Shown in pieces: positions 7,048 through 41,779 of a stretch of DNA of 64,000 bases; the first letter of the stretch is position 1, and each line of letters begins with the position of its first letter. The notes beneath the pieces were generated by a model. The model was given only the letters and a program-made list of their open reading frames with translations, did not search any database and was not told the origin of the DNA. Where the stretch lies: sequence record PZ386974.1, one strand, 5' to 3'. The position numbers and the translations under genes are program-made. The DNA comes from a phage.

Positions 7048-7069
7048 AAGTACCTCTTGGCTCAATTCA

Positions 7070-7103
7070 TAGGTCTATTATATCATAATATTTAGAGACC
7101 TAT
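7070..7103 (-). promoter_or_regulatory. Promoter-associated inverted repeat (PeSL-like) upstream of gene 55
   Basis: ATAGGTCT...AGACCTAT arms flanking an AT-rich segment containing TATAAT on the minus strand; coordinates approximate. Confidence 0.4.
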
Positions 7104-7119
7104 CTTAAAGCACGAGATA

Positions 7120-7389
7120 CTATCGGAGCAAACAATAAGCCTGAAACACTTTTTCCATTAAACGTTTGAACTCATGGATATCGATATAAAACTCAGTAAG
7201 ACCGGCATTATAAAGAAAATCTAAAAAGTTATCATGTGTTTCGTTATAGTCGCCTTCGTTTAATTGAGATACATGAGTTTCCCAAAAACCAACACCTTTA
7301 ACGAATGGAAAATACGTGACTTTCATGAAGTTATCGACGTAAAATTCGCCCAGCTTTTCTTCAGTTATACTGATTCGAGTTAATTTCAT
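7120..7389 (-). CDS. Hypothetical protein
   Basis: 89 aa track ORF. Confidence 0.5.
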   Translation of the reverse strand: MKLTRISITEEKLGEFYVDNFMKVTYFPFVKGVGFWETHVSQLNEGDYNETHDNFLDFLYNAGLTEFYIDIHEFKRLMEKVFQAYCLLR

Positions 7390-7613
7390 TTTAGTTCCTT
7401 TGCTGCTTCAAGAGCAGCATCCAGCGAATCAAATTGGTCAACGAAATCAATATTCAACGCATCGTCAACCGTAGCATATAACCACCATTGTTTGAATTCA
7501 TATTCTAGGATAAATCCAGGCCCTTCAATCTGAGGAAGACCTAGACTATTTGTACCAACTTCGTAACCAGCTAGACGCAGGTCATTAATCAAAGTTTCTG
7601 TTAATACGCTCAT
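7386..7613 (-). CDS. Hypothetical protein (acidic)
   Basis: 75 aa track ORF overlapping neighbours by 4 nt. Confidence 0.5.
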   Translation of the reverse strand: MSVLTETLINDLRLAGYEVGTNSLGLPQIEGPGFILEYEFKQWWLYATVDDALNIDFVDQFDSLDAALEAAKELK

Positions 7614-7942
7614 TTTACCGCCTTAACAATTTTAAGGTCAACGAATTTTTTCTTACGTTGATTTTTCATACGACGGATAGTCTTTTCAGAGATTTCATGT
7701 TTCTGATAAGCTTTAGATTCAACACCAAATGCAGCAACGTCAAATTCAGAAAGAATATATTGTACTAGAATTTCACGAATAGAATTACGTCCAATTTTCT
7801 GGTCGTGTTTTTGCATGATTTCGTAAAGACGGAATTCCCATGCGTCAAGAACTTGAGGAGTAACAATATTGCCAGATTCCAGAAGAGCAACAACTTTATC
7901 GAAAGCGAAAGAATTAACTACGTTTTTGATTTTAGTAGACAT
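7610..7942 (-). CDS. Hypothetical protein
   Basis: Track ORF 7610..7981; internal ATG at 7942 (MSTKIKN...) with Shine-Dalgarno. Confidence 0.5.
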   Translation of the reverse strand: MSTKIKNVVNSFAFDKVVALLESGNIVTPQVLDAWEFRLYEIMQKHDQKIGRNSIREILVQYILSEFDVAAFGVESKAYQKHEISEKTIRRMKNQRKKKFVDLKIVKAVK

Positions 7943-7957
7943 ATTATTTTCCTCGGT

Positions 7958-8010
7958 TATTTTATTATCCAACGAGAGCATTATACTCTGCTCCCAAGAG
8001 TCTGTACACT
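7958..8010 (-). promoter_or_regulatory. PeSL-like early promoter with inverted repeat around the -10 element
   Basis: Minus strand reads GTACAG-N17-TATAAT with GAGAGCA/TGCTCTC arms; near-identical copy at about 37355-37410; coordinates approximate. Confidence 0.45.
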
Positions 8011-8248
8011 ATTTTTTAAGCATGAAAAGTAAGTAATTTGTATCACGTGGAGTAATATCAACACCCATATCAAAGATGCCTTTATAGATCGGGTATTTGT
8101 TTTCGGTTGTATCGAAGCTGAAACTATTTCCATCACAACTAACAGTAATAGCATCTGTTAAAATGTCATACTCAATCCTAACAATTGAATCCCCAATTTT
8201 AACGTCGAGGTGTTTTTTGAATTTGATAAAATCTAATTCTTGGGCCAT
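8009..8248 (-). CDS. Hypothetical protein
   Basis: 79 aa track ORF with ATG start. Confidence 0.5.
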   Translation of the reverse strand: MAQELDFIKFKKHLDVKIGDSIVRIEYDILTDAITVSCDGNSFSFDTTENKYPIYKGIFDMGVDITPRDTNYLLFMLKK

Positions 8249-8270
8249 GATATTTTCCTCATTTTAAGAC

Positions 8271-8308
8271 GATAGGAAGATAATAACATGTCTTCCTATC
8301 GTTGTACA
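8271..8308 (-). promoter_or_regulatory. PeSL-like promoter/stem-loop (GATAGGAAGA...TCTTCCTATC)
   Basis: 10 bp inverted repeat enclosing an AT-rich -10-like loop, TGTACA -35-like element; coordinates approximate. Confidence 0.4.
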
Positions 8309-8311
8309 TTA

Positions 8312-8512
8312 TTAACCGAACTTTTTAGCGCCTTTCCAGCCTTCGTACATAACTGCACAAGTCAGTAGTACAGCGTGCTGGCATTCTTTGTATTTGTAAA
8401 TCCAGAACCAGCGTAAGAAGTCTTCATCCTCAACGCCGTTGAGTTTCATATTGGCAAAGAATTCGGCACGTTCTTCACGAAGCTTTTGCGATAACATAGA
8501 TTCAGGATTCAT
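8312..8512 (-). CDS. Hypothetical protein
   Basis: 66 aa track ORF. Confidence 0.45.
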   Translation of the reverse strand: MNPESMLSQKLREERAEFFANMKLNGVEDEDFLRWFWIYKYKECQHAVLLTCAVMYEGWKGAKKFG

Positions 8513-8643
8513 TTTGTGTTCCAGGCCCCATTTTCATCGATGAACTTAATCCAGTCATTTACAGACCATTTAGTTGTATCACCCTTTGGATTAACATTTA
8601 AAGTATATAATCCCTGCTTAAAAAGCATTCGTTTGATATTCAT
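8509..8643 (-). CDS. Small hypothetical protein (start uncertain)
   Basis: Track ORF 8509..8736 overlaps 8651..8971 in another frame; internal ATG (MNIKRMLFKQ...) taken as start. Confidence 0.3.
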   Translation of the reverse strand: MNIKRMLFKQGLYTLNVNPKGDTTKWSVNDWIKFIDENGAWNTK

Positions 8644-8650
8644 AATTTCC

Positions 8651-8944
8651 TCAACTGTAACGATAACATTCGTTAGCTTTACGTTTGGCTTCAGTATGAG
8701 AAGTATTATAATCATAATCTTCTTTACTGTAAACATCTTTTTTCAACTTACGAACTTCTTTGCGGAGTTGTCGATTCATTTCATTCTTGACTTCAGAATC
8801 AACGCCTTTCATACGTTTCCATTTATCTGAGCGGAAAATGTTTTCAACCATGTCTTTGTGGCTAACACCGTCAGGAGCTTTACGCTTACCAAAATAGTCG
8901 TAATCGCGAACTTTCAAATCTTTACGACGATATGTTTTACCCAT
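8651..8944 (-). CDS. Hypothetical basic protein (Lys/Arg-rich)
   Basis: Track ORF 8651..8971 begins at TTG; ATG at 8944 (MGKTYRRKDLK...). Confidence 0.45.
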   Translation of the reverse strand: MGKTYRRKDLKVRDYDYFGKRKAPDGVSHKDMVENIFRSDKWKRMKGVDSEVKNEMNRQLRKEVRKLKKDVYSKEDYDYNTSHTEAKRKANECYRYS

Positions 8945-8951
8945 AAGTACC

Positions 8952-9200
8952 TCAGAGGTTGATCGATACAACGCGTTTGATAAAATTCACTTCACTTACT
9001 GAAAGGTCTTTAAGACCGATTGATTCTAAACGCTGAGTAAGCGTCAACATCGGGATATAATCCCATTGAGTTTTATTTGCTTGATAAGTACGAACGCCAT
9101 TAGCAATTTCAACATGCAAATCGGAAATGGTAATGAATACCGGATGCTCGTCATTAACTTTAAGGGTTAGAACAACCTTCTTTGAATCTAAACTAATCAT
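8952..9200 (-). CDS. Hypothetical protein
   Basis: 82 aa track ORF with ATG start. Confidence 0.5.
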   Translation of the reverse strand: MISLDSKKVVLTLKVNDEHPVFITISDLHVEIANGVRTYQANKTQWDYIPMLTLTQRLESIGLKDLSVSEVNFIKRVVSINL

Positions 9201-9379
9201 GGCTTAATTTCCTTCGCAATTGAACAGAAGATACTACGGTCACAAAGCATTTCACCAATTTCTGGATATTTGATTGAACGGTACCAAACATCCAGGCTTG
9301 AAACTCTGGTTATCTGTACTGCATTACCGTTGACAGAATAGTACTGGTCAACCTTAATTTCTTTATCTTCAATTGTCAT
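9197..9379 (-). CDS. Hypothetical protein (60 aa)
   Basis: Track ORF 9197..9541 begins at GTG with a low-complexity N-terminus; ATG at 9379 (MTIEDKEIK...) is preceded by GAGGAAAACAAA. Confidence 0.45.
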   Translation of the reverse strand: MTIEDKEIKVDQYYSVNGNAVQITRVSSLDVWYRSIKYPEIGEMLCDRSIFCSIAKEIKP

Positions 9380-9527
9380 TTTGTTTTCCTCTGTGGTAGA
9401 TGGTGCTAATCTTAACATATCTATCGAGGATGTAAACTGTTTTATGAAAATATTTTTGATTTGAGAGGGGCACAAGGAGATAATGAAGTGAAGATTCCAA
9501 TGGATTATATTAGAAATGAGATAAAGA

Positions 9528-10155: not shown

Positions 10156-10371
10156 TTAAGCCTTTTTATCAAGAACAGAATTCAGTTTATTAGTAATTTT
10201 GTCCAAACGTTCATTGAATTCGCTGGAGGATAAACCCTTTTCTGGAGAAATTAAACTAATCACGAAAAATACACCAGTAAAAGGAATAAGAAAAATAGCT
10301 CCAACTGCCATAAACAAAAAGAACGTTACAGTTGTAAGAAAATCAGCTAAACCTTTACGAAATTTATACAT
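10156..10371 (-). CDS. Hypothetical small membrane protein
   Basis: 71 aa ORF with a hydrophobic helix (VTFFLFMAVGAIFLIPFTGVFFVISLI). Confidence 0.5.
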   Translation of the reverse strand: MYKFRKGLADFLTTVTFFLFMAVGAIFLIPFTGVFFVISLISPEKGLSSSEFNERLDKITNKLNSVLDKKA

Positions 10372-10481
10372 ATTTACCCTTAATTAACTAAGCATTGATA
10401 ATCATTAAACTATATTGCGAATAAAATTCTGGGCCAAAACGAAAAATCATATCATTTATAGTATCCATAATATAATTCAAT

Positions 10482-10952
10482 TTAATCATGTTTCCACACC
10501 CCATCGGTATTTGACCAAAGTCGCTGATTATCTGATCCTCGCCACAGCTTTTTAGTCGGAAGATTTTTCTCATACTTCCCATCAATAATAACATCAACAT
10601 ATTTAAGCATTTCTAGTTGTTTAATATCTTCAAACTTATATCCTGTCCACAACCAAATGCTTTTATTGGGATAAAGATTTTTTACTGTTTGAACAATGCG
10701 ATGAATAACATCTCGGTTATCAGGATAGAGAGGGTCTCCTCCGGTTATAGTTAATCCTTCTATATAATCATTATTCAAACATTCAATTAATTGTTCTAGT
10801 GTCTCTCCAGTGAATGGAACACCGTTTCTAGCATTCCATGTTGATTTATTATAACACCCTTCGCATTTATGCAAACAACCTGTGACGAAAAGAACGACCC
10901 TGCAACCAGGGCCATTCACAAAATCGCAAGGATAAAATCTATCATAATTCAT
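10482..10952 (-). CDS. nrdG: Anaerobic ribonucleotide reductase activating protein NrdG (radical SAM)
   Basis: 156 aa; CLHKCEGCYN radical-SAM cysteine motif; immediately downstream of nrdD with an ATGA overlap. Confidence 0.9.
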   Translation of the reverse strand: MNYDRFYPCDFVNGPGCRVVLFVTGCLHKCEGCYNKSTWNARNGVPFTGETLEQLIECLNNDYIEGLTITGGDPLYPDNRDVIHRIVQTVKNLYPNKSIWLWTGYKFEDIKQLEMLKYVDVIIDGKYEKNLPTKKLWRGSDNQRLWSNTDGVWKHD

Positions 10953-12766
10953 TGGTGTTTAACCCTATGCATGATTTCTTTATTTTTGCCTAGATTAAAT
11001 CCGCGTTCGTTCGGGTTTCCAAGATAACCACACGTTCTTCTTATTGTGTTCATCTTTTTAGGATCAGTTTCTCCACAAATAGAACAAACAAATCCGTTTT
11101 CAGTAGGAGTCATTTCATGGGTACTTCCACACGTAAAACATTTATCTACTGGCATATTAACACCAAAATAATCTAAATGTTGTGCAGCATAATCCCAGAC
11201 AGCCTCAAGTCCCTTTAAATTGTTTTTCATATCTGGAAGTTCAACATAAGAAATGTGACCACCTGACGCAATGAAATGATATGGCGCTTCACGAGAAATC
11301 TTTTCAAACGGAGTAATATTTTCTTCTACTGAAACATGGAAACTATTAGTGTACCAGCCTTTATCAGTGACATCCTTTACACTTCCATATTTTTCCGTGT
11401 CGAGTTTACAGAAACGATAACACAAGTTTTCAGCAGGAGTAGAATACAAGCTAAAAGCAAAACCGGTTCTTTCGGTCCACTGTTTAAGATGAGTATTCAT
11501 TTTAGTTAAAATTTCTTGTCCAATATCACGACCGACAAGAATATTCAATTCGTGAATACCAATGTATCCTAGGGACACTGAACTTCTACCGTTTTTAAAT
11601 AACTCAATTATATCGTCATCAGGTTTAAGACGGACCCCGAATGCACCTTCTTGGTAAAGAATAGGAGCAACAGTCGCTTTAACCCCTTTTAAGGAACTAA
11701 TTCTACACATCAAAGCTTCAAAACACAAATCCATTCGTTCATCGAACAATTCGGCAAATTTCTGTTCATTGAACTGTGTTCCAATATAAGAATCTAATGC
11801 GATACGAGGAAGATTCAGTGTTACAACACCGAGATTATTACGTCCATCAAGAATTTCATTACCGGTCGAATCTTTCCATACGCTCAAGAAACTACGGCAA
11901 CCCATTGGAGAAACAGGAACTGAAGAACCGGTAATAGCTTTATTATTCTTAACCGAAATAATATCAGGATACATTCTTTTGCTTGCGCACTCTAGAGCAA
12001 GCTGCTTAATATCATAGTTCGGATCATCTTTATAAAGATTAACACCTTCTTCAACAAACATAACAAGCTTAGGGAAAATAGGAGTTATTCCATCACGACC
12101 AAGACCTTTAATGCGGTTTTTAAGAATTGCCTTCTGAATCATTCGTTCAGTCCAATCGGTTCCCGTACCAAATGTAATTGTTACAAAAGGCGTTTGTCCG
12201 TTTGAACTAAAGAGAGTATTTACTTCATATTCATAAGCTTGGAATGCGTCATAGACATCTTTTTCTGTTTTGGATTGAGCATAATTCAACGCATCAGCGA
12301 TTTGCCATTTTTCTGCATCTTCAATATGTTTTGCATAGGTGCGTTTAACATAAGGAGAAAGTACTTTATCTACATTAGCAAAAGTCGTTCCGCCATACTG
12401 GTGAGAAGCAACTTGTGCGGTAATTTGTGCCATAATTGCAGTAGCAACGCCAATAGATTTAGGCGTTTCAATTTGAGCATTGCCTAATTTAAATCCATTC
12501 TCAAGCATCCCATTTAAATCGACTAAACAGCAATTAGTAAATGGAAGAGCAGGAGAATAATCAATATCATGCATGTGAATGATTCCGCTTTCATGCGCAT
12601 TCATAATAAAAGACGGGACCATATTTTTGGCAATGTGCTTAGACACAATACCAGCCATAAGGTCCCGTTGAGTTGGAAAAACACGAGAATCTTTATTAGC
12701 ATTCTCGTTTAAAAGGTCTTTATTAGTTTTATGAATTAATCCTTCAATTTCTTTTTCAATTTTCAT
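10949..12766 (-). CDS. nrdD: Anaerobic ribonucleoside-triphosphate reductase NrdD (glycyl radical enzyme)
   Basis: 605 aa, the T4 NrdD length; C-terminal zinc-ribbon cysteines (CFTCGS...CSICG) and glycyl-radical region (RTCGYLG). Confidence 0.92.
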   Translation of the reverse strand: MKIEKEIEGLIHKTNKDLLNENANKDSRVFPTQRDLMAGIVSKHIAKNMVPSFIMNAHESGIIHMHDIDYSPALPFTNCCLVDLNGMLENGFKLGNAQIETPKSIGVATAIMAQITAQVASHQYGGTTFANVDKVLSPYVKRTYAKHIEDAEKWQIADALNYAQSKTEKDVYDAFQAYEYEVNTLFSSNGQTPFVTITFGTGTDWTERMIQKAILKNRIKGLGRDGITPIFPKLVMFVEEGVNLYKDDPNYDIKQLALECASKRMYPDIISVKNNKAITGSSVPVSPMGCRSFLSVWKDSTGNEILDGRNNLGVVTLNLPRIALDSYIGTQFNEQKFAELFDERMDLCFEALMCRISSLKGVKATVAPILYQEGAFGVRLKPDDDIIELFKNGRSSVSLGYIGIHELNILVGRDIGQEILTKMNTHLKQWTERTGFAFSLYSTPAENLCYRFCKLDTEKYGSVKDVTDKGWYTNSFHVSVEENITPFEKISREAPYHFIASGGHISYVELPDMKNNLKGLEAVWDYAAQHLDYFGVNMPVDKCFTCGSTHEMTPTENGFVCSICGETDPKKMNTIRRTCGYLGNPNERGFNLGKNKEIMHRVKHQ

Positions 12767-15345: not shown

Positions 15346-16292
15346 TATAACACCTCAATGGCATTTCGTAAACCATCCGCTTTCGCGTTCAGAGCTTTTA
15401 ACGATTTAGTCTGTTCTTTAATCTGGGCTTCGACTTCTTTAAGACGAGATTTGAGATATTCACGTTCTTCGCTCAAGTTGTCAACTTTTTCTACTTTAGG
15501 TTCTTTAATAGTCTTAAGTTTATACTCGTTAGGGTTCTTCAACTTAATTTGAATGCGAGAACTGAATAACATCGAACCGTTATCTTCGGTTTCGTCATAC
15601 ATTTCTACTACGTCCATGATTCTTAACATCATGCGAAGTTTATAAGACAGCGAACGAACGGTTTTATTGTGCTTCTTAATTTCTTCAGCTTTCATGGTGC
15701 CGAGATTACGTGAGTAGTAATAAGGAACCTGGATATCAATTGACAATGATGCGTTACCATTACCTGTTGGTTTGAATACTGCAGTAACCCAATCTTTAAC
15801 ATGAACTTTATTTGTACGATCATCGCCACCAGTGAATAATTTACGAGAATGTTTAAAAAGCATATTCACTTGGTTATTGAATTCACAAGCAAATTTATCA
15901 GCAAATTTAGTTTCAGGAATGGTAGATAACCAATCAGCCAAATGAGTCTTTTTAACATCATTAACAATAGTGAATTCAACCAAATCGGTTTTAGATGTCA
16001 CAGATTTAATAAAGCTCGGCTTCATAAAGTTTTTAATGTTATCGCGAGCTACAGTAGAAGATAATAAACGAGAACGTTTGAACCATTGAAGCAGCGTCCC
16101 TAATGAATGAGAATATGCATTTTGAGTATCTTTACAGATATGATTTTCTTGGCCTGTGTATGTAAGAAAATCACGAAGAATACTATAAACCACACCTTTA
16201 TGTGGAACATCAGTCCAAGCACCAGTAGCACGTTGAGCGTGAGCGTTAGCGATAAGACCGGCAAAGTATTCAATGTAATGTGAACGTGTCAT
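15345..16292 (-). CDS. Hypothetical protein with C-terminal coiled-coil
   Basis: 315 aa ORF with ATG start; Lys/Glu-rich heptad-like tail. Confidence 0.55.
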   Translation of the reverse strand: MTRSHYIEYFAGLIANAHAQRATGAWTDVPHKGVVYSILRDFLTYTGQENHICKDTQNAYSHSLGTLLQWFKRSRLLSSTVARDNIKNFMKPSFIKSVTSKTDLVEFTIVNDVKKTHLADWLSTIPETKFADKFACEFNNQVNMLFKHSRKLFTGGDDRTNKVHVKDWVTAVFKPTGNGNASLSIDIQVPYYYSRNLGTMKAEEIKKHNKTVRSLSYKLRMMLRIMDVVEMYDETEDNGSMLFSSRIQIKLKNPNEYKLKTIKEPKVEKVDNLSEEREYLKSRLKEVEAQIKEQTKSLKALNAKADGLRNAIEVL

Positions 16293-16320
16293 AATATTTT
16301 CCTCTCGTTAAGATAAATTC

Positions 16321-16350
16321 ATTATACTCCAACCATCCTTGGTTGTAAAC
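16321..16350 (-). promoter_or_regulatory. Early promoter (GTTTAC-N18-TATAAT) with hairpin CAACCA-tcct-TGGTTG in the spacer
   Basis: Plus strand attatactccaaccatccttggttgtaaac; 27 nt identical copy at 17341-17367. Confidence 0.5.
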
Positions 16351-16354
16351 TGAT

Positions 16355-17314
16355 TTATGATTTTAACGCATTCATTGCGTTAAAAAGTTTAGAATACTGC
16401 AACTGGAGATTCGTTACAACACTTTGAGCATCACGAAGCTTAGCTTGTGCTTTGTCAAGTTCAACAGACAGTTGGTCCATAGTGGCCTTGATTTGATTGT
16501 AATGGTAATCTTCGACCGGAAGAAGGTCATTAGAAACATTTAGTTTTACTGCAGACAGTTTGCACACATTTGGCAAACCTTTAAACATTGATTTACCCGA
16601 AGTAGAATAAGCACTTAGGACTTCGGCCTGTTCAATTGGGGTCCCAGTAAGCGATGCTTCAAACGTTGCATTTTCCTTTTTAAGATTTTGATAATATTCG
16701 GAGTCTTTGTGCCACCATGGCGCAGGAACCTTTTTACCAATAGATACACGAGCCTGGATAGCGATATGGCCCTTATTCTTGATAGGGTTGATAATATTAA
16801 GCTCACGAGAATAAATTGCTTTAATCTGGTGGATATTATCACCTAACACTTCCAATGCTTGGTGGAATACACGAGCAACGTTATCATTCTTAGGTTTATA
16901 CGTAAGAGTGAACTCATTCTCACTGATAACCATGATTTCCAACTTATCGTAAGTATATTTCAAATGTTTCATGTTAATTGCTTGAGGACGAATACGAGAA
17001 GCAATGGCCATCAGATTGTTAAGGTTATTCCGGAACTGCTTAGCGAAATATTGACCTTCACCGCCAATACAAAAATTACGAAGTTTCTGTTTGGCCAATA
17101 AACGGCTGAACTCACCATTTTTAATGAACTCTTTAACGGGTGTGTTAGTAACGCATTCAAATTGGGTAAACATACGAGAAGTAATCCCATAATATGAACA
17201 GATTTCCTCAATCTCTTCAGGAGTCTTTACAGGCATACGGATAGGATTAGGTCCTGGAGTATATGCGTTCGAGGTAAATTCTTTGATAAGTTCTCTACGT
17301 GTAATAAAAGCCAT
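16355..17314 (-). CDS. Hypothetical protein with C-terminal coiled-coil
   Basis: 319 aa ORF, ATG start. Confidence 0.55.
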   Translation of the reverse strand: MAFITRRELIKEFTSNAYTPGPNPIRMPVKTPEEIEEICSYYGITSRMFTQFECVTNTPVKEFIKNGEFSRLLAKQKLRNFCIGGEGQYFAKQFRNNLNNLMAIASRIRPQAINMKHLKYTYDKLEIMVISENEFTLTYKPKNDNVARVFHQALEVLGDNIHQIKAIYSRELNIINPIKNKGHIAIQARVSIGKKVPAPWWHKDSEYYQNLKKENATFEASLTGTPIEQAEVLSAYSTSGKSMFKGLPNVCKLSAVKLNVSNDLLPVEDYHYNQIKATMDQLSVELDKAQAKLRDAQSVVTNLQLQYSKLFNAMNALKS

Positions 17315-17340
17315 TTTATATTCCTCATGTTGAAAAATTT

Positions 17341-17370
17341 ATTATACTCCAACCATCCTTGGTTGTACAT
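17341..17370 (-). promoter_or_regulatory. Early promoter/stem-loop, duplicate of the 16321 element
   Basis: attatactccaaccatccttggttgta repeated exactly; -35-like TGTACA. Confidence 0.5.
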
Positions 17371-18970: not shown

Positions 18971-19011
18971 GTTGATAGGTCTATAATAACATAACCATAG
19001 ACCTTGTAAAC
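18971..19011 (-). promoter_or_regulatory. PeSL-like promoter: GTTTAC -35, TAGGTCTAT/ATAGACCT arms around a TATTAT -10
   Basis: Plus strand gttgataggtctataataacataaccatagaccttgtaaac; coordinates approximate. Confidence 0.45.
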
Positions 19012-20417: not shown

Positions 20418-20516
20418 ATTTTATTCTCCAATTTACTCATTTCGTTTCGATAGGTCTATAATAACATATCCTAAAAGCATGTACACTACTTTTTAAAAAT
20501 ATTTTAACCCCCTAAA

Positions 20517-20532
20517 GGGACCCGAAGGTCCC
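20517..20532 (-). terminator. Hairpin GGGACC-UUCG-GGUCCC downstream of the 20538..20819 gene
   Basis: Perfect 6 bp GC stem with UUCG loop; the following U tract is interrupted. Confidence 0.4.
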
Positions 20533-20537
20533 CACAT

Positions 20538-23150: not shown

Positions 23151-23195
23151 TCGTTTTGATAGGACTACTATAACATAGTCCTATCAAGTTGTAAA
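23151..23195 (-). promoter_or_regulatory. PeSL: GTTTAC -35, perfect 10 bp inverted repeat GATAGGACTA/TAGTCCTATC with the -10 (TATAGT) in the loop
   Basis: Plus strand ttttgataggactactataacatagtcctatcaagttgtaaac; coordinates approximate. Confidence 0.5.
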
Positions 23196-23432
23196 CTACC
23201 GATTGTGTTTTAAATGTTGATAAAGTTCTTCAACTTGTTTAGGGTCCAAAACAATTAAGTCATTTTCTTGACGAAGATAAATCCATCCCTTATCCCCAGG
23301 GCCATTTTTACAAAACATCACCGTCGTCATATCGTCATCTTCAGCGCTTTCAGGTAAAAGTTCAAGTACACCATCTTCAGATTTTCCAGTATAATCGTAA
23401 AGCATAATATCCTCACATAATCTCGTTAACAT
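23196..23432 (-). CDS. Hypothetical protein
   Basis: 78 aa ORF. Confidence 0.5.
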   Translation of the reverse strand: MLTRLCEDIMLYDYTGKSEDGVLELLPESAEDDDMTTVMFCKNGPGDKGWIYLRQENDLIVLDPKQVEELYQHLKHNR

Positions 23433-23592
23433 ACATTTGCAATTCGGTGTGCGTATCAGCCATCTTTTTCATAGCTCTGTTAATGTCGATGTCTCCATCT
23501 TCGCAACCATGAGCATTTTCCCAATCAGATACCGCATTAGCGTACTCTTCAATCAAAAACATCAACTTAGAAATTTTTTCTTTACGTGACAT
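23413..23592 (-). CDS. Hypothetical protein
   Basis: Track ORF 23413..23661 begins at TTG; ATG at 23592 (MSRKEKISKLMF...). Confidence 0.45.
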   Translation of the reverse strand: MSRKEKISKLMFLIEEYANAVSDWENAHGCEDGDIDINRAMKKMADTHTELQMYVNEIM

Positions 23593-23664
23593 AACGTTCT
23601 CCTCTAGTAAGTAAGGTCTACTATAACACAACCTGAGGAAAAGTAAACTGCTAAATGCCAAAAA

Positions 23665-23686
23665 GCCCCAACCTTTCGGAAGGGGC
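23665..23686 (-). terminator. Intrinsic terminator hairpin GCCCC-uu-CC-GAAA-GG-uu-GGGGC plus U-run, downstream of rI
   Basis: Same hairpin sequence recurs at about 39055 and, with a different loop, at about 38511. Confidence 0.6.
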
Positions 23687-26370: not shown

Positions 26371-26829
26371 CTAGATTTTAATCACTGCTTTAGAAGCTTT
26401 TCCTGGTAGTCGTTTACTGTTAATAATAGCCATTCTACATTGAAGAGTCTTCATTTTGAATGCCGGATTTTCGCGACAAACTGTAAGTCCTAACCAAAGA
26501 TTTCCATCAGTTATTTCTAAACGGCCTGGGCGGTACTCGACACCTTCGACAAAATCTTCATCAACATCCGGACGTGCCGGCATTGATAAAAATTCTGCAA
26601 CTTCTTTAACGTGATTTTTTACTTTATGAAATAATTCAAAAACGTAATTCTCATCTATTTCTCTCTGGATGGCACGATCTAAGAGATGTTGAGAATACTT
26701 GATATGAAAGCCTGGTAGTCCAAGAGACTTTGCAGCATCTTTTATACCGGCATTTATTTTGCGGAACTCCGTTTCAAAGATTCGACGGAGTTTATTACGG
26801 CGGATAAAAACTTCCGAATTGATAGTCAT
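26371..26829 (-). CDS. regB: Endoribonuclease RegB
   Basis: Track ORF 26371..26853; ATG at 26829 gives MTINSEVFIRRNKLRR...RMAIINSKRLPGKASKAVIK, near-identical to T4 RegB as recalled. Confidence 0.9.
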   Translation of the reverse strand: MTINSEVFIRRNKLRRIFETEFRKINAGIKDAAKSLGLPGFHIKYSQHLLDRAIQREIDENYVFELFHKVKNHVKEVAEFLSMPARPDVDEDFVEGVEYRPGRLEITDGNLWLGLTVCRENPAFKMKTLQCRMAIINSKRLPGKASKAVIKI

Positions 26830-26834
26830 TTTGA

Positions 26835-26885
26835 TTTCTCCTCTAGTTGACAAGTCTATAGTAACACAACTAGAGGAGAAGTAAA
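26835..26885 (-). promoter_or_regulatory. PeSL upstream of regB: GTTTAC -35 and 14 bp inverted repeat TTCTCCTCTAGTTG/CAACTAGAGGAGAA around the -10
   Basis: Right arm contains the GGAG Shine-Dalgarno of regB; coordinates approximate. Confidence 0.5.
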
Positions 26886-27185
26886 CTACTCTTTGAAAGG
26901 AATTAACTTTTTAACTGCTTTAGATACTTCGTCACGAACCTGATGGAAGTTCTTGAGCTGTTCAAGGCGTTGTTCGTAATACGCAATCTCATCTTCTTCA
27001 AGACAATCGTCAGCGTCTTCTTTCAGATATGCCTTGTACTCATTAAAGAGGGCCCATAGGCGGTTCTCAAAGTCATCAAGGCTTTGAATTTTCTTGTGCT
27101 TCGGAACAAGGCCAAAAGGATTGCTTTCAGTTATGCGTCTAGATGCTTCATAATGAGTTCCAAAGCCTGATAGGATTTGAGCCAT
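26886..27185 (-). CDS. Hypothetical protein (T4 vs.x position)
   Basis: 99 aa ORF. Confidence 0.5.
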
Positions 27186-29406: not shown

Positions 29407-29721
29407 TTATTCTTTAGGGAAGTTTTTAGAGTATGCATCATAAAGTTTATTACCGATGCGACGGAAGACTTTAGCTGCAAAACGGTTTTCAGGGTTTTTA
29501 ATCATGATTTGCATCATGTAAGTTCCTGCATCCGAAAGAGCTTCTTCATAGTACCCATTAATTTCTTTAAGGGTCCTACGTTTACCACCAGGACCATCAA
29601 CAGTAATTTTCCATTTACCTGTAGAAGTGCGGCTCGGTGGCTCAACTTGTTCAATCCAAATATAACCACCTTCAACGCGTTGGTTGGCGGATTCTGCAAT
29701 AAATTCTTTATACGTTTTCAT
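29407..29721 (-). CDS. Internal-protein-like protein with capsid targeting sequence (MKTYKEFIAE)
   Basis: N-terminal CTS; 104 aa. Confidence 0.6.
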   Translation of the reverse strand: MKTYKEFIAESANQRVEGGYIWIEQVEPPSRTSTGKWKITVDGPGGKRRTLKEINGYYEEALSDAGTYMMQIMIKNPENRFAAKVFRRIGNKLYDAYSKNFPKE

Positions 29722-29785
29722 TTTTTGTTTCCTTGTTTGTTTTGATAGAGTAATTATACCATATTAATACTTAAGCGTAAACAAT

Positions 29786-30052: not shown

Positions 30053-30466
30053 TTAGTAAATTGATTTACCATAGTATTTGTACCAAGTCGGACGTTGAGC
30101 AATTTTTTCATCTAAGCGTGCTTGACTTATCGCAATGGACGCTTCGGACGGGACGTAATTATTACGAAATTCGGCAGGGATGTCGGAAATATCCTGGACA
30201 GTCGTGTCCTTGATTTTGAAACCACGTTTCAAGCATTCAGCGATTAGCTCGATTTGTCGTAAACGTAAAAATTCGAGTTTGTCGTAAAAGAATGTTACGT
30301 GACCTGTGCCTAAGATAAATGTTGGAGAGATTTTAAAATCCTTTACACGTTTACCGTTTTGAACATGTTTACGGACTGCACCAAATACGCGTGGTAATTC
30401 ACGATACTCAGCCATAAGATGTTGGTCGGCCAGTTCAGAAACAAGCGTTAAATTGATACGGGTCAT
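30053..30466 (-). CDS. denV: Endonuclease V (pyrimidine dimer DNA glycosylase) DenV
   Basis: Track ORF 30053..30478; ATG at 30466 gives 138 aa [34 protein letters not shown]..., near-identical to T4 DenV as recalled. Confidence 0.93.
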
Positions 30467-30469
30467 AAT

Positions 30470-30525
30470 TTCCTCCAAGTAGTTGATGAATGTATAGTAT
30501 CAAAGTCCTTGGAGGAAGTAAACAC
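30470..30525 (-). promoter_or_regulatory. PeSL upstream of denV (TCCTCCAAG/CTTGGAGGA arms, GTTTAC -35)
   Basis: Plus strand cctccaagtagttgatgaatgtatagtatcaaagtccttggaggaagtaaac; coordinates approximate. Confidence 0.45.
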
Positions 30526-33504: not shown

Positions 33505-33550
33505 TGTTTTAATAGGACTACTATAACATAATCCTATAATTGTGTAAACA
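33505..33550 (-). promoter_or_regulatory. PeSL (ATAGGACTA...TAATCCTAT arms, GTTTAC -35)
   Basis: Plus strand ttaataggactactataacataatcctataattgtgtaaac; coordinates approximate. Confidence 0.45.
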
Positions 33551-34799: not shown

Positions 34800-34845
34800 T
34801 GTTTTGATAGGACTACTATAACATAGCCCTATCTTGTTGTAAACT
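34800..34845 (-). promoter_or_regulatory. PeSL (GATAGGACTA.../...TAGCCCTATC, GTTTAC -35)
   Basis: Plus strand gttttgataggactactataacatagccctatcttgttgtaaac; coordinates approximate. Confidence 0.45.
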
Positions 34846-35643: not shown

Positions 35644-35741
35644 TTTCTACATTCCTTAATAAAGTTTTCGATTGTTTCATTTTCACGTCTAGCTAGGAGT
35701 TCATTATAACTAATCATTTGAGAAGCGTAAACAGTATAAAT

Positions 35742-36164
35742 TCAGTTCAGGCTTTTGCATCTTATCTCCTTAACGAATTCCATAGCTTCTTCGTATTCAT
35801 ACTTTTTAACAGCTTCATCATACTGAGCTTGGGCTTTTGCGCACTGAACTTTCCATTCTCTTAATCGGGCTCTGTGATGACGGCCTTGGTACCAATATCC
35901 CACCCAGTTAATAGGCATTAATAAAAATGGCACAATAAACGACCCGGCTATAATAAGTAAAAACACTGCATCAGACGATATAACTTCACTAGAATCTAAA
36001 ACAGCTCCTATAATCATAAAGATTAAAAATGCTAAAGCTAAAATAGGGCCAAATAGTACTTCATTTGGGATTAATTTACGCTTATATTCATACGCCCAGG
36101 GCTTACTTGGCATGTATAGGGTTGGCTTTGACATATTCTCTACATTCCATAATAAATTGCTCAA
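35742..36164 (-). CDS. Hypothetical membrane protein
   Basis: 140 aa; two TM helices then a charged C-terminal helix. Confidence 0.5.
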   Translation of the reverse strand: MSNLLWNVENMSKPTLYMPSKPWAYEYKRKLIPNEVLFGPILALAFLIFMIIGAVLDSSEVISSDAVFLLIIAGSFIVPFLLMPINWVGYWYQGRHHRARLREWKVQCAKAQAQYDEAVKKYEYEEAMEFVKEIRCKSLN

Positions 36165-37354: not shown

Positions 37355-37410
37355 CAATTGGTGGTTTATTATCCAACGAGAGCATTATACTCTGCTCTCA
37401 AGAGTTTGTA
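37355..37410 (-). promoter_or_regulatory. PeSL (TTTACA-N17-TATAAT with GAGAGCA/TGCTCTC arms), duplicate of the 7958 element
   Basis: ttatccaacgagagcattatactctgctc shared with 7965-7993; coordinates approximate. Confidence 0.5.
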
Positions 37411-37412
37411 AA

Positions 37413-37640
37413 TTATTTTTTAATCAAATTGACATAAAACTTGGCGTCTTCGGGGTGCATGCCTTCGCAGTATTCTTCAACCATGAACTTCTTAACAGCT
37501 TCATAAGGACCGCTAAGATTAAGCTCAGTTGTCCAGAACTTGGAATCTTGTACTGAATCGATACGAACTTCAGGGTGACGGTTGCGAATAACTTCTTCAG
37601 TGTATTCATAATCAACGACATCAATACTAACTTTAGCCAT
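37413..37640 (-). CDS. Hypothetical protein
   Basis: 75 aa ORF with ATG start. Confidence 0.5.
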   Translation of the reverse strand: MAKVSIDVVDYEYTEEVIRNRHPEVRIDSVQDSKFWTTELNLSGPYEAVKKFMVEEYCEGMHPEDAKFYVNLIKK

Positions 37641-37910
37641 TTTGTTTTCCTCTTGATTTGATAGGACTACTATAACATAAACTTACTTAGATGTAAATTA
37701 TTTCAACGTCACCTTTAGCTGCTTTATAACCTTCAGCCCAAGATACAACAGAGTTTTTATCTGAGGATTCAAATTCAGGCATTGGACTTTCACCAATATT
37801 CACACAGTATGTTTCTTCATTTTCATCGAACCAAATAATTAAAGTAGTCATTTTGTTTACTCCTCTGTAGTTGATAAGTCTATAGTATCACCATCCTTGG
37901 TGCTTGTACA

Positions 37911-38414
37911 TCATTTATTTTTAATTTTGCAAATTTTTTCTGCTTCAGCAATTGCAGCGTCAATGATGCTTTGTGCAATTTTATTACTAGTTGACCTGGC
38001 AATCACACTAAGAACAATTTCTTTTTCTTCACCACCCCAACCCCAAGTCCTTTGTTCGTGGGTACCTTTAACTACAGCTGAAACTTCAACAGAACGTCCA
38101 CCATCAGAAGTTTTAACATCTACAACCCAATCACCATCTTTCTCTTCTACCCTTGATTTATCCCAAGAAATACTAATATATGATTCGCTATCAATAGAAG
38201 TCGCCGGGTTTTTCTCTACCGTAAGACCTTCACTTTCCAGCCATTCAATAGTATTTGCGCATAAATCTGAAGAACACCTAATCGGAAACCGGCAAGATTT
38301 TTCACCTTTAGCTGCAGCGTTATACATCTTTTCTAAAATACGCTTTTGCACGTTTTTAAAAATAGTTTCAGCAGATTCTTCAGATTTTTTATTCAGTTCA
38401 GTGTAAAGACTCAT
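37911..38414 (-). CDS. Hypothetical protein
   Basis: 167 aa ORF with ATG start. Confidence 0.5.
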   Translation of the reverse strand: MSLYTELNKKSEESAETIFKNVQKRILEKMYNAAAKGEKSCRFPIRCSSDLCANTIEWLESEGLTVEKNPATSIDSESYISISWDKSRVEEKDGDWVVDVKTSDGGRSVEVSAVVKGTHEQRTWGWGGEEKEIVLSVIARSTSNKIAQSIIDAAIAEAEKICKIKNK

Positions 38415-38510
38415 AATATTCTCCCCATGTTTTGATAGGTCTATAGTAACACATCTAGGGAAGAAGTAAACATCTTTATGAAATATTTTTATGCCCTAGA
38501 TACCAAAAAG

Positions 38511-38532
38511 CCCCAACCGTAAGGAAGGGGCA
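38511..38532 (-). terminator. Terminator hairpin GCCCC-uu-CC-UUAC-GG-uu-GGGGC plus U-run, downstream of the IP-like gene
   Basis: Same stem as the 23665 and 39055 hairpins with a different loop. Confidence 0.55.
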
Positions 38533-39054: not shown

Positions 39055-39076
39055 GCCCCAACCTTTCGGAAGGGGC
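39055..39076 (-). terminator. Terminator hairpin GCCCC-uu-CC-GAAA-GG-uu-GGGGC followed by a U8 run
   Basis: Closes the tRNA/small-RNA transcription unit on the minus strand. Confidence 0.6.
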
Positions 39077-39388
39077 TATGCCTTGCGGCAACCTTGTCGG
39101 GGTTCCACCTGCTAAGGCAAGTGTTTGTACGAAACGCCGGGATTCGAACCCGGTTATTAAGTAGTTGACGCTACTCAATATTTTTAAAAGGCCATATCTC
39201 GACCATATCCGAACGTTCCGTCAAAAACGCTACTCGGCTTACGGCAAAGATATTTCCTCGAATCGATAATTCGGTGCGCCGTTTCTGCTGTGATGTAAGG
39301 GGATATTAACAAATCGTAAAGATTTATTAAGACCAGTCCTTACTCAGGGAGCATCAGTCCGACGACTTACCGGTAGCGACCCGGCTTC
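39077..39388 (-). ncRNA. Candidate stable small RNA region (T4 rnaC/rnaD-like position), including a tRNA-like T-arm
   Basis: About 310 nt without ORFs between the tRNA-side ORF and the terminator; canonical CCGGG-TTCGAAT-CCCGG T-arm at about 39137-39153 but no full cloverleaf. Confidence 0.3.
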
Positions 39389-39733: not shown

Positions 39734-39751
39734 ATTTTCCTCACTTAAAAT

Positions 39752-39828
39752 TGGTCGAGACAGAAGGATTCTAACCTTCAACCTACGGATTAGAAGTCCG
39801 TTGCTCGATACAATTGAGCTATGCCTCG
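39752..39828 (-). tRNA. tRNA-Arg (anticodon UCU), CCA encoded
   Basis: Hand-folded cloverleaf: acceptor CGAGGCA/TGTCTCG, D-stem GCTC/GAGC, anticodon stem ACGGA/TCCGT with loop CUUCUAA, T-arm GAAGG-TTAGAAT-CCTTC. Confidence 0.75.
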
Positions 39829-39834
39829 AATATA

Positions 39835-39908
39835 TGACCCAGACCAGATTCGAACTGGTAACCTTTCCCTTATGAGGGGACTGCTGCTAACCATTGAGCT
39901 ACAGGGCC
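39835..39908 (-). tRNA. tRNA with CAU anticodon (Ile2-type as in T4, or Met)
   Basis: T-arm ACCAG-TTCGAAT-CTGGT, anticodon loop CUCAUAA, acceptor GGCCCTG/CTGGGTC with one mismatch; D-arm folds imperfectly by hand. Confidence 0.55.
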
Positions 39909-39987
39909 TAAATAACTTTCTATTATGAAAGGCACTTTAGAGTACCTTTGGTAATAGAGGGTATGAATTAATAATAACACATAATTC

Positions 39988-40503
39988 TTAAAGCAAATCA
40001 ATCATTTTAACAGTTGGCAAAACGATTTCTTCTTCAATATAAGCAAATTCGACACGTTCAACTACACGCAAGAAATCGTAATCATAGTATTCAGAAGCAT
40101 AGCCAAGAATATCAATAAGACCTTGAGATATCTCATCGCCTTTCACAAAGAACAGGTCGAATACGCGGGCTTCGTCTTCTTCAGATTTATTACCAAGGTC
40201 GACTTCAATATCAAAGACCTTTTTAATGAATTCCGGCTGGAGCTGGTCTGAAAACAGTCCTTCAACCAGATATTCGTAGATAATAAGCGAGCAATCACTG
40301 AATGGTGTATTACCACAGTAACGTTCAGCTTTAGTGCTGGAATGACGACTCTTAAATTTCTTCAAGAGATATTTAAACTGTTGGAGCTCATGTTCTTCCA
40401 CACCAAATAATGTTTTGGTTTTATAGTTGTCACCGTCATTTTCCCAAGTAGTGACATCAATTACGTAACCCTTAGGAATTGTACTGCCTAAACAAATATT
40501 CAT
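39988..40503 (-). CDS. Hypothetical protein
   Basis: 171 aa ORF with ATG start. Confidence 0.5.
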   Translation of the reverse strand: MNICLGSTIPKGYVIDVTTWENDGDNYKTKTLFGVEEHELQQFKYLLKKFKSRHSSTKAERYCGNTPFSDCSLIIYEYLVEGLFSDQLQPEFIKKVFDIEVDLGNKSEEDEARVFDLFFVKGDEISQGLIDILGYASEYYDYDFLRVVERVEFAYIEEEIVLPTVKMIDLL

Positions 40504-40507
40504 TTAC

Positions 40508-40798
40508 TCACCGTACCATATTAATGTAATTATATTCAATGCAACGTAATTTCAAAGGATTCTTGAAAATATCATATTCAAGAGGGCCTTGTTCTGTTTC
40601 AATAAAGAAATCAAAGTTAACTGTGTTAAATTTATCGTCTTCACAGAGTAATTTAACTTGCGAAGATGAACGGTCGATATAAACCTTTTCAACCTCAAAG
40701 TTAGTCAGAATACCGTAGTCATCGACTAGTGCTTTAGCTGCTCGTTGGTCGCTTTCATATCCGTTCTCGACAGATTTTACTTTAGCGTAAAGAATCAT
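40508..40798 (-). CDS. Hypothetical protein
   Basis: 96 aa ORF. Confidence 0.5.
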   Translation of the reverse strand: MILYAKVKSVENGYESDQRAAKALVDDYGILTNFEVEKVYIDRSSSQVKLLCEDDKFNTVNFDFFIETEQGPLEYDIFKNPLKLRCIEYNYINMVR

Positions 40799-41157
40799 GA
40801 ATGTTCCACCATTTCAAAGGTATGAGCATCAACAATATGATACCAGTCAAAATTTTCTTCTGCGTTTTTATAAATTTCGCGAAGAGCCTCAACAGTTTTT
40901 CCTGTAGCAACAAGGTCGTCAATACCACCAAGAGGATAACAGTCATAACCAGCAAACAGAAGGAAATTAATAGTTTCTGTAGGTTCTGGATGCAGAACTC
41001 CGTTATCGTCTACCACTTCAAAGAAAGTGTAAGAAGGAGTACAAGTTTTAATCCAGGTCCATGCTTGAGCTGCTGAATCAAATGGTCTGCGTATCAAACG
41101 ACAATCAGGGTCTTTAGAAGGATTTGCTTCAAAATCCGCATATACATGATATTTCAT
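40795..41157 (-). CDS. Hypothetical protein
   Basis: Track ORF 40795..41175; ATG (MKYHVYADF...) at 41157. Confidence 0.5.
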   Translation of the reverse strand: MKYHVYADFEANPSKDPDCRLIRRPFDSAAQAWTWIKTCTPSYTFFEVVDDNGVLHPEPTETINFLLFAGYDCYPLGGIDDLVATGKTVEALREIYKNAEENFDWYHIVDAHTFEMVEHS

Positions 41158-41158
41158 T

Positions 41159-41344
41159 TTACTCACCTTTTGCAATTTTATCCATAACGATAGCGATTAA
41201 ACCGATTAGAAATGCTACTACCAATGAGATAGAATTTTCTGATGTTGACAGTAGTCCGCAAATGAATCCTACAAACATCGAAAAACTAAAAGCCATTGAA
41301 GCAATTACTACAGCAACATTACGAATCAGTTCAGCGCGTTTCAT
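41159..41344 (-). CDS. Small hypothetical membrane protein
   Basis: Track ORF 41159..41365; second ATG (MKRAEL...) has the stronger GGAGA Shine-Dalgarno; single TM helix. Confidence 0.45.
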   Translation of the reverse strand: MKRAELIRNVAVVIASMAFSFSMFVGFICGLLSTSENSISLVVAFLIGLIAIVMDKIAKGE

Positions 41345-41369
41345 TTTATTTCTCCATTTACTCATTTGT

Positions 41370-41415
41370 TTTGATAGGACTACTATAACATAGTCCTATC
41401 AGCATGTAAACTACT
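41370..41415 (-). promoter_or_regulatory. PeSL: GTTTAC -35, inverted repeat GATAGGACTA/TAGTCCTATC with -10 TATAGT in the loop
   Basis: Plus strand gttttgataggactactataacatagtcctatcagcatgtaaac; same arms as the 23151 copy. Confidence 0.5.
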
Positions 41416-41702
41416 TATAGAAGAGTTTTTGCAATAATTTTAAGCTGAGCTACAGAAATATGCTTAGCTTTAAACAGTGCAGTCTCTTCAGCCGGAGAGA
41501 TAACAATAGTAGCGCCATCTTTCTTAGCAGACCATCCATCCCCTAAATAAACAGTACCTTTTACTTCTTCGCCGTCAACCAGACTAATCATTGGTTTACC
41601 CTCGCGTCCTTTATTTGCTTTAATAACTTCGGAAGTAAGGGTTGCTTCGGTCAGAGTAGAAACGTTAGCAACAGGTGATATAAATTCTTTATAGGTTTTC
41701 AT
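41415..41702 (-). CDS. ipI: Internal protein I (IPI), capsid-injected anti-restriction protein
   Basis: 95 aa; MKTYKEFI... CTS and ...GREGKPMISLVDGEEVKGTVYLGDGWSAKKDGATIVISPAEETALFKAKHIS... near-identical to T4 IPI as recalled. Confidence 0.9.
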   Translation of the reverse strand: MKTYKEFISPVANVSTLTEATLTSEVIKANKGREGKPMISLVDGEEVKGTVYLGDGWSAKKDGATIVISPAEETALFKAKHISVAQLKIIAKTLL

Positions 41703-41779
41703 TTTATTTCCTTGAGGTTGTTTATTTGATAGGATGATAGTAACACACCATCATCCTTATGTAAACTGTTTTGTGAAAA

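Follow-up and report, generated by a model that had tools for sequence, protein, structure and literature searches.

The stretch of phage DNA analyzed here (the window) comprises 64,000 nucleotides (nt) of sequence record PZ386974.1. On its minus strand lies a set of early promoters that share one anatomy, are enriched for hairpins folding over the -10 box and coincide with points at which homology to close relatives starts or stops. We consider it likely that these elements are composite regulatory cassettes of the promoter early stem-loop (PeSL) type, carried by an RB69-like (Mosigvirus) T4-type phage. PeSLs were described by Arbiol et al. (2010) as a strong sigma-70-like early promoter with A/T-rich upstream sequence, a stem-loop and a downstream Shine-Dalgarno (SD) sequence plus ATG (PMC2839356). 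The stem-loop can occupy five positions, most commonly between the -35 and -10 or over the -10; the elements lie between genes, mostly in hyperplastic regions, and accompany indels (PMC2839356). Their definition and experimental support come from PMC2839356 and PMC4122927, and the original authors already suggested that they occur in probably all T4-like phages. As the initial annotation of the window had proposed, each sequence-level hallmark of a PeSL was found, namely promoter, A/T-rich upstream sequence, stem-loop, intergenic placement, hyperplastic location and indels or replacements. The elements are of a known kind, here extended to an RB69-like phage, which will not surprise a specialist.

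Early promoters of the hyperplastic region

A 10-kb stretch of the window is 97-98.5% identical to the Mosigvirus genomes LNA2, G53, mar005p1, JK36 and relatives of RB69, and ~150 records match it over at least 80% of its length; the source is a Mosigvirus, an RB69-like T4-type coliphage. With annotation transferred from G53 and RB69, the minus-strand gene order reads gp45, 46, 47, 55, nrdD, 49, nrdC, tk, vs, regB, denV, e, two tRNAs, the internal-protein locus, 57B, 1, 3, 2 and 4, ending at ~45.2 kb, after which the plus strand carries late baseplate genes. By this order, the area of interest is the phage's large hyperplastic region. The early promoter elements are confined to 7.9-41.8 kb, from gene 55 (just downstream of gene 47) to 57B, where they stand before small open reading frames (ORFs); the promoter scan detected none in the late baseplate block at 45-64 kb.

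The GTTTAC-like -35 and TATAAT-like -10 boxes noted on the minus strand by the initial annotation were recovered at 22 candidate T4-type early promoters, assembled from the window by a hexamer scan plus inspection for both box motifs. All are on the minus strand at 7973-41766 and are named here by the first position of the -35; three (35732, 15373 and 8734) are doubtful, lying in ORFs or at an ORF edge. The common layout is a GTTTAC-like -35, a 17-18 nt spacer and a TATAAT-like -10, with a TGn motif at most sites. The 25 nt upstream of the promoters have a mean A+T content of 72%, compared to 63% (sd 9%) in background windows, and at most sites the upstream stop codon is 0-13 nt from the -35. 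The ATG follows the end of the -10 by 27-28 nt in 12 of the 22 promoters (range 26-38 nt). The SD is mostly GGAG or GAGG followed by an A-rich stretch, which is a known RegB/S1 target context, and the 22 leaders look standardized. Elements occupy 21 of the 94 gene junctions (22%).

The predicted promoters belong to the T4 early promoter class, which consists of an UP element, a GTTTAC -35, TGn and a -10 (PMC2988021). Nolan et al. predicted 57 such promoters in RB69 and reported no stems or palindromes (PMC1524935). A generic sigma-70 scan returned 73 sites versus 65.5 in shuffles, with no overall enrichment, and only its top-scoring, TGn-bearing, minus-strand sites are meaningful. The initial annotation had started the series at 7066, which did not hold: the site at 7102-7070 upstream of gene 55 was excluded, as it has no GTTTAC -35 and its 7-base-pair (bp) stem with a 19-nt loop is at chance level (p 0.46). 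On the minus strand at 7070-7120, a 7-bp inverted repeat (TAGGTCT/AGACCTA) accompanies a MotA-box-like motif (TGCTTTA) and an extended -10 (TGaTATAAT), at a spacing unlike that of a standard middle or early promoter.

Hairpins over the -10 box

The palindrome GATAGGACTA-N8-TAGTCCTATC occurs twice exactly, at 23158-23185 and 41373-41400, and once with a single mismatch, at 34806-34833, in agreement with the copies quoted by the initial annotation near 23151, 41375 and 34805. A variant, GATAGGAAGA-N10-TCTTCCTATC, occupies 8271-8300, and shuffled sequence yields 0 to 0.02 matches to the palindrome patterns. Read on the minus strand, each copy is placed between a GTTTAC -35 and the expected start, holds TGnTATAGT in its loop and is followed by a short A-rich leader, a GGAG SD and an ATG.

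A sliding 40-nt minimum free energy profile with a cut-off of -10 kcal/mol gave 215 minima per strand, which was too permissive, and a promoter-anchored fold test was therefore used instead. A compact hairpin was defined as an RNAfold energy of <= -10 kcal/mol in a 36-nt segment centred on the -10. Nine of the 22 promoters carry one, compared to 2.56% of 15,055 same-strand background segments (binomial p = 1.8e-9). Each of the nine has a shuffle p <= 0.053, and a second folding gave z-scores of -3.4 to -5.8. The nine sites, in which the main family with arms GATAGGACTA/TAGTCCTATC is called A1, are as follows.

41731..41766, minus strand: promoter 41766, after gene 57B and before an internal-protein-like ORF (ATG 41702); -35 at 41766-41761, -10 TACTAT at 41742-41737, arms 41757-41749 and 41739-41731; -15.4 kcal/mol, shuffle p 0.000, z -4.06.
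41372..41411, minus strand: promoter 41411, A1 family; -35 at 41411-41406, -10 TATAGT at 41387-41382, arms 41401-41390 and 41383-41372 (GATAGGACTA/TAGTCCTATC), ATG 41344; -17.7 kcal/mol.
37377..37413, minus strand: promoter 37413, a paralogue of the 8009 site; -35 ATTTAC, -10 TATAAT at 37389-37384 wholly in the loop, GAGAGC/GCTCTC stem with arms 37400-37393 and 37384-37377; -11.9 kcal/mol, z -3.4.
34806..34844, minus strand: promoter 34844, A1 family with one G.U pair (GATAGGGCTA/TAGTCCTATC); -10 at 34820-34815, arms 34833-34823 and 34816-34806, ATG 34786; -16.0 kcal/mol.
33512..33549, minus strand: promoter 33549, A1 family (TATAGGATTA/TAGTCCTATT); -10 at 33525-33520, ATG 33491; -10.4 kcal/mol.
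23156..23196, minus strand: promoter 23196, A1 family with a 13-bp stem; -10 at 23172-23167, arms 23187-23175 and 23168-23156, ATG 23138; -18.6 kcal/mol, z -5.77.
18977..19011, minus strand: promoter 19011, in a different hairpin register (AGGTCTATG/TATAGACCT); -10 TATTAT at 18988-18983, ATG 18955; -13.4 kcal/mol, z -3.94.
8269..8309, minus strand: promoter 8309, with a weak -35 (ATGTAC) and hairpin ACGATAGGAAGA/TCTTCCTATCGT; ATG 8248; -16.7 kcal/mol, z -5.18.
7973..8009, minus strand: promoter 8009, with -35 GTGTAC, -10 TATAAT and a GGGAGC/GCTCTC hairpin; ATG 7942; -11.0 kcal/mol, shuffle p 0.053.

Counted instead by contiguous stems of at least 8 bp around the -10, 13 of 23 sites qualify, 10 of them with shuffle p <= 0.05. 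The initial annotation had counted at least 15 sites with the -10 in the loop. That figure is too high by either measure (nine compact plus two long hairpins, or 13 of 23 sites) and is reached solely by adding chance-level stems of 4-7 bp or promoters with a separate upstream terminator. The placement in the loop applies to most compact hairpins, while at 41766 and 19011 the -10 is mostly in the stem. Similarly, the GATAGG...CCTATC ends reported as preserved belong to the first family (five sites) and are not shared by the others.

An arm-neutral pattern, which fixes the -35, the TGTTAYWRT box and a downstream AAAAC and leaves the arms free, was used to collect 78 distinct T4-type early promoters from metagenome contigs. 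Just 6 of these fold at <= -10 kcal/mol, all of them relatives of the window families, and the hairpin is therefore not a by-product of promoter composition. In the same kind of promoter-hairpin scan, RB69 has hairpins at 8 of 21 promoters and Tequatrovirus ES21 at 4 of 15, three of the 4 being in the internal-protein locus. The promoter just after 57B has a hairpin in both genera, with different arms. Searched at gathering thresholds, Rfam returned the two tRNAs only and no known RNA family over the hairpins.

Long hairpins at regB and denV

Two to four further early promoters carry long hairpins, clear at regB and denV, in which the 5' arm is located in the -35/-10 spacer and the 3' arm contains the SD.

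26829..26886, minus strand: regB early promoter with a 14-bp hairpin; 5' arm 26880-26867 in the spacer, -10 TACTAT at 26863-26858, 3' arm 26849-26836 holding the regB GGAG SD, ATG 26829; -21.6 kcal/mol, z -4.05.
30466..30523, minus strand: denV early promoter with a 10-bp hairpin; 5' arm 30517-30508 (TTCCTCCAAG) in the spacer, 3' arm 30479-30470 (CTTGGAGGAA) including the SD, ATG 30466; -17.8 kcal/mol, z -5.69.

At both genes the SD is paired with a 5' arm upstream of the internal start, which is not the case for the nine compact hairpins. By analogy with T4 e, soc, 49 and I-TevI, the long hairpins may keep read-through RNA from being translated. Tequatrovirus ES21 (-23.4 kcal/mol) and Gelderlandvirus UTK0003 share the regB design with different arms, including three double-sided pairs, and Gaprivervirus CJ20 lacks it. 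The consensus from MAFFT and RNAalifold is weak, because indels misalign the four sequences, and single-sequence folds are the better evidence. The review by Uzan and Miller describes the regB early promoter and its self-cleavage, and does not describe the regB hairpin.

Conservation of structure across hairpin families

The initial annotation held that the arms differ between copies yet remain complementary, through selection on structure. Comparison between families argues for this. Unrelated arm families occur in one genome (GATAGGACTA, AGGATGATGG, GGTCTAT and GAGAGC), and the 8309 site, with its GATAGGAAGA arms, departs from the main A1 family at two pairs, each changed on both sides (C-G to A-U; U-A to G-C). 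At the second pair of the 23196 stem, the window has A-U, G53 and RB69 have G.U and mar005p1 has G-C, and the 8009 stem is GGGAGC/GCTCTC in the window versus a compensatory GAGAGA/TCTCTC in RB69 and G53. Different arms are also found in CC31 (GGTAGGGCTA/TAGCCCTATC) and Tequatrovirus ES21 (GATAGGGTA/TACCCTATC). Between hairpin families, these comparisons indicate that the structure was kept while its sequence changed.

Homology breakpoints at early promoters

Breakpoints were mapped by chaining BLAST alignments, at 96-97% identity, between the window and five relatives (G53, mar005p1, RB69 and two partial ones); these yielded 29 distinct homology boundaries. Promoter elements make up 4.2% of the region and contain nine of the 29 (p = 1.8e-6, uniform null), so that the coincidence on which the initial annotation had staked its proposal is present. 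Of 22 boundaries located at gene junctions, 10 involve a junction with a promoter, where 22% would be expected (p = 0.014, gene-junction null). Homology starts or stops within 6 nt of a -35 at 20479, 26890, 35732, 38477 and 41416. The G53 boundary at 37677 is at the TGn of promoter 37698, just upstream of the -10, and an RB69 replacement breaks immediately 3' of the -35 at promoter 20486.

Individual loci illustrate what such boundaries enclose. Where the window has promoter 33549, G53 has an extra 66-codon ORF between two promoters, and the window promoter is a chimera whose -35 side matches the first G53 promoter and whose -10 side matches the second. At 41339-41416, a 78-bp element is kept from the -35 to the second codon in RB69 and G53, with unrelated flanking genes. 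At 35732-35744, ~250 bp of G53, mar005p1 and RB69 sequence (inside e.3, in RB69 coordinates) are missing and replaced by an 11-nt filler, with the downstream boundary exactly at a GTTTAC.

Two larger differences were observed elsewhere. An 806-bp insertion in mar005p1 corresponds to window 2261-2329 in the 45.2/46 intergenic region, where the window holds a 19-nt inverted repeat (2275-2313); a mobile gene, for instance a homing endonuclease, could account for the insertion. In the nrdG/nrdD region, ~2.5 kb (10251-12762) are missing from G53, which has 240 bp instead, and these boundaries are not at early promoters.

Copies of the element in other phages

Copies were sought with a 49-nt element query, for which the INPHARED phage collection and a metagenome scan were informative; IMG/VR contained very few copies (2 and 5 loci). 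The query matches 340 phage records and roughly 1,300 copies in all, with 5-8 places per Mosigvirus-type genome and single copies in Tequatrovirus, Karamvirus CC31 and Dhakavirus-type genomes. Further matches are in Acinetobacter Lazarusvirus phages (53 Acinetobacter phage records) and the rV5-like phage A5-4.

Two of these phages bear on the proposal of the initial annotation that the small ORFs are mobile cassettes, which the paired G53 promoters and the chimeric 33549 promoter already favour. In Tequatrovirus slur03, the G53-type small ORF and its downstream element stand before an nrdC.10 homologue, which is a different locus. Escherichia phage A5-4 (Vequintavirinae, rV5-like; stretch 359-660) carries the 28-nt A1 hairpin promoter without change; immediately upstream of the element is an 80-codon ORF with 70% identity to RB69ORF245c, and the gene downstream belongs to the rV5-like group. 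The arrangement resembles a transfer of ORF and element between phage families, and both cases support the idea that an ORF may move together with its element.

Two other copies were seen in passing. Acinetobacter phage Kimel (599-650) has GATAGGACTATT-GTTAT-AATAGTCCTATC around a TATAAT, directly after the gp43A half of its split DNA polymerase gene. Escherichia phage Av-05, classified in Vequintavirinae, combines a Mosigvirus-like internal head protein gene, an A1-type element and a homologue of window ORF 33491-33186, an arrangement that goes back either to deletion from one A1 copy to another or to chimeric assembly of the record.

Terminators and hairpin-free promoters

A canonical terminator, GCCCCTTCC-N4-GGTTGGGGC followed by a T run, is present in three minus-strand copies (23665-23686, 38510-38531 and 39055-39076), which are the sole intrinsic-terminator-like stems of this type among these elements. 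Two of the three are directly upstream of early promoters (23648 and 38471). A mar005p1 replacement boundary (39048) coincides with the T run that immediately follows the third copy; terminators therefore act as conserved islands as well. The promoters with a separate upstream stem are listed first below, followed by those with no significant hairpin or only part of one.

38414..38531, minus strand: terminator 38531-38510 and T run, then promoter 38471 (-35 at 38471-38466); no -10 hairpin; weak anti-SD/SD pairing of 38465-38458 with 38426-38419 (shuffle p 0.17).
23592..23686, minus strand: terminator 23686-23665, then promoter 23648 (-35 at 23648-23643); weak anti-SD/SD pairing (shuffle p 0.2).
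20419..20533, minus strand: a different, G+C-rich terminator-like hairpin at ~20533-20514, then promoter 20486 (-35 GTGTAC at 20486-20481); no significant -10 hairpin.
37640..37698, minus strand: promoter 37698, which keeps the A1 right half TGTTATAGTAGTCCTATC with no complementary left arm; 0 kcal/mol.
29721..29782, minus strand: promoter 29782, a consensus early promoter (GTTTAC, 18 nt, TATAAT) with no significant hairpin.
16292..17370, minus strand: two early promoters (-35 at 17370 and 16350) with a common spacer, AACCAAGGATGGTTGGAG; neither has a significant hairpin.
9379..9437, minus strand: promoter 9437 (-35 at 9437-9432, -10 TAAGAT); no significant hairpin.

Proposed mechanism and alternative explanations

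Several results weigh against the PeSL assignment or narrow it. About half of the early promoters are hairpin-free, ~7 of them having no significant stem-loop at all. The intrinsic-terminator scan (hairpin plus T run) called none of the compact hairpins, whose stems are followed by AAAAC and not by a U-tract, which leaves the terminator part of the PeSL model without support in this window. Boundaries outside the elements number 20 of 29, which is also a caveat to the movement of small ORFs with the element. A hairpin is present at just 3-4 of the 7 breakpoint promoters (20486, 35732, 37698 and 38471 are hairpin-free); as breakpoints occur at promoters with and without hairpins, promoter homology rather than the stem-loop may be what matters. 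Inside the A1 family, the arms are mainly sequence-conserved and form mostly a conserved palindrome: among 24 distinct sequences, 93% of cells pair and 4 are double-change cells, a result matched by 34 of 500 shuffles, so that selection on structure within this family is only weakly shown. At fixed stem positions on the sense strand, G.U mismatches (~5 distinct events) barely outnumber A.C mismatches (3-4), and for this reason we make no claim of selection on RNA and do not assign the folded species to RNA or DNA. Finally, the transcription starts, ~7 nt past the -10 for host sigma-70 RNA polymerase, are predicted from spacing.

Under the PeSL reading, each element is a compact standard linker between small early genes, ordered as upstream stop codon, 0-13 nt, A/T-rich UP-like sequence and GTTTAC -35, 17-18 nt, TGn and -10, ~28 nt, then GGAG and ATG. 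Transcription would start at the 3' edge of the inverted repeat. A transcript from the element's own promoter would then lack the 5' arm, and only upstream read-through RNA could fold; the hairpin therefore probably marks or insulates the boundary of neighbouring early transcription units. It could do so by attenuating read-through or by blocking 3' exonucleases and protecting the 3' end of the upstream message, which is the least secure step. In the long form at regB and denV, the SD would be hidden on read-through RNA. At the DNA level, comparison with relatives shows a further role. The elements share a near-identical stretch of 50-80 bp, present 5-8 times in each genome in direct orientation, which supplies homology for recombination, so that small ORFs are lost, gained or swapped and a ready-made promoter stands at the junction.

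Translational or stability gating, in which the main function of the hairpin is to separate read-through RNA from local RNA, is compatible with the PeSL reading and is a possibility we take seriously, although on balance we doubt it. The 14-bp regB and 10-bp denV stems, at -21.6 and -17.8 kcal/mol with SDs in their 3' arms, fit it well, as does the recurrence of the regB design with changed arms in Tequatrovirus and Gelderlandvirus. Every compact hairpin stops within ~3 nt of the predicted start, so that transcripts from the local promoter would never contain it, and there is precedent in T4 e, soc, 49 and I-TevI, where a promoter lies within a hairpin that masks the ribosome-binding site on longer transcripts (PMC3014915). 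However, the nine compact hairpins stop ~19 nt before the ATG and leave the SD untouched, the anti-SD pairings at 38471 and 23648 are no better than shuffles (p 0.17 and 0.2), and a T-rich start of the spacer is common across T4-type promoters.

A broader proposal joins gating to mobility, and we regard it as speculative and rather unlikely. Here the hairpins would be a general RNA device at T-even-like early promoters that tells read-through from local transcripts, either hiding the ribosome-binding site (regB and denV) or capping the neighbouring message, and the near-invariant GATAGGACTA...TAGTCCTATC unit would be a regulatory module in its own right, able to move by itself or together with one small ORF among Straboviridae, rV5-like Vequintavirinae and Acinetobacter Twarogvirinae.

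It is improbable that the DNA hairpin or cruciform is itself the recombination substrate, driving mobility through structure-specific cleavage (for example by endonuclease VII or gp46/47). Palindromes are indeed at several window junctions, but 6 of the 9 promoter-associated boundaries are within ~6 nt of the -35 hexamer and not in the loop, many breakpoint promoters are hairpin-free as described above, and stems of 8-13 bp with loops of 6-10 nt would be poor cruciform formers. Even less credence can be given to the A1 palindrome as an operator, at which a dimeric phage or host protein would bind over the -10 and switch a subset of early promoters. The near invariance of GATAGGACTA/TAGTCCTATC in Mosigvirus, a Tequatrovirus, an rV5-like phage and Acinetobacter Lazarusvirus phages and the weak covariation inside the family are what an operator would predict; unrelated arms at other promoters of the same genome, the two symmetric changes of the 8309 variant within that genome, G.U intermediates and asymmetric copies (34844 and 33549) and the single half-site retained at 37698 are not. 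It is just as hard to credit that the hairpins are neutral passengers of one palindromic promoter copied around the genome, with the enrichment reflecting paralogy: five of the nine compact hairpins are one sequence family and 37413 and 8009 are paralogues, but counting by family still leaves 4-5 independent hairpins in ~17 promoter lineages versus a 2.6% background, orthologues have compensatory changes, and hairpins are missing from most T4-type early promoters elsewhere.

The PeSL reading extends such cassettes to RB69-like coliphages, a group much used in therapy work. The original PeSL descriptions were thin on quantitative support, which the arm-neutral promoter control, the gene-junction null and the cross-locus and cross-family examples now add. 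For the window copies, the published model is weak in two respects, as they have no terminator signature and no hairpin-specific link to breakpoints. The sites mark where gain and loss of accessory genes can be expected and would be natural insertion points for engineering.

Comparison with known systems

The closest counterparts are the PeSLs of RB49 and phi1 (PMC2839356), which likewise combine A/T-rich upstream sequence, a strong early promoter, a stem-loop over the -10 or the -35/-10 interval and a downstream SD and ATG. They, too, are intergenic, clustered in hyperplastic regions before small ORFans and associated with indels or replacements between close relatives. Unlike the window elements, with their GTTTAC boxes and mixed-sequence stems (GATAGGACTA and others), they have polyG/polyC stems and a TTGACA -35. 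Terminator activity and mini-circles were demonstrated experimentally for RB49 and phi1. The compact stems of the window lack a U-tract, and its chimeric 33549 promoter may be an indirect trace of recombination between neighbouring elements of the kind that excises mini-circles.

The PeSLs of PST/T4 and nt-1/KVP40 described by Comeau et al. (2014; PMC4122927) share the T-even consensus TTTACW, N17, TAYWAT and likewise mark the places where small genes are swapped, the internal-protein locus among them. Their arrangement, with a stem-loop upstream of the promoter, is matched by the window sites in which the GCCCCTTCC-N4-GGTTGGGGC terminator precedes the promoter. In PST and nt-1, the stem-loops are just upstream of the promoter, the common PST stem being AGNA-loop-TCNT, whereas most stem-loops of the window embrace the -10. 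Tequatrovirus ES21 also has -10-embracing hairpins, unlike the PST placement reported in PMC4122927.

In T4 e, soc, 49 and I-TevI (PMC3014915), as predicted for regB and denV, a promoter is located inside a hairpin with the SD in the 3' arm, and only local transcripts have a free ribosome-binding site. Those are late promoters that gate late translation, whereas the internal promoter in the window is early and the compact hairpins exclude the SD. Lambdoid morons are also single accessory genes with their own promoter and sometimes a terminator, and differ from PeSLs according to Arbiol et al. In the window, the breakpoints fall in the promoter sequences themselves.

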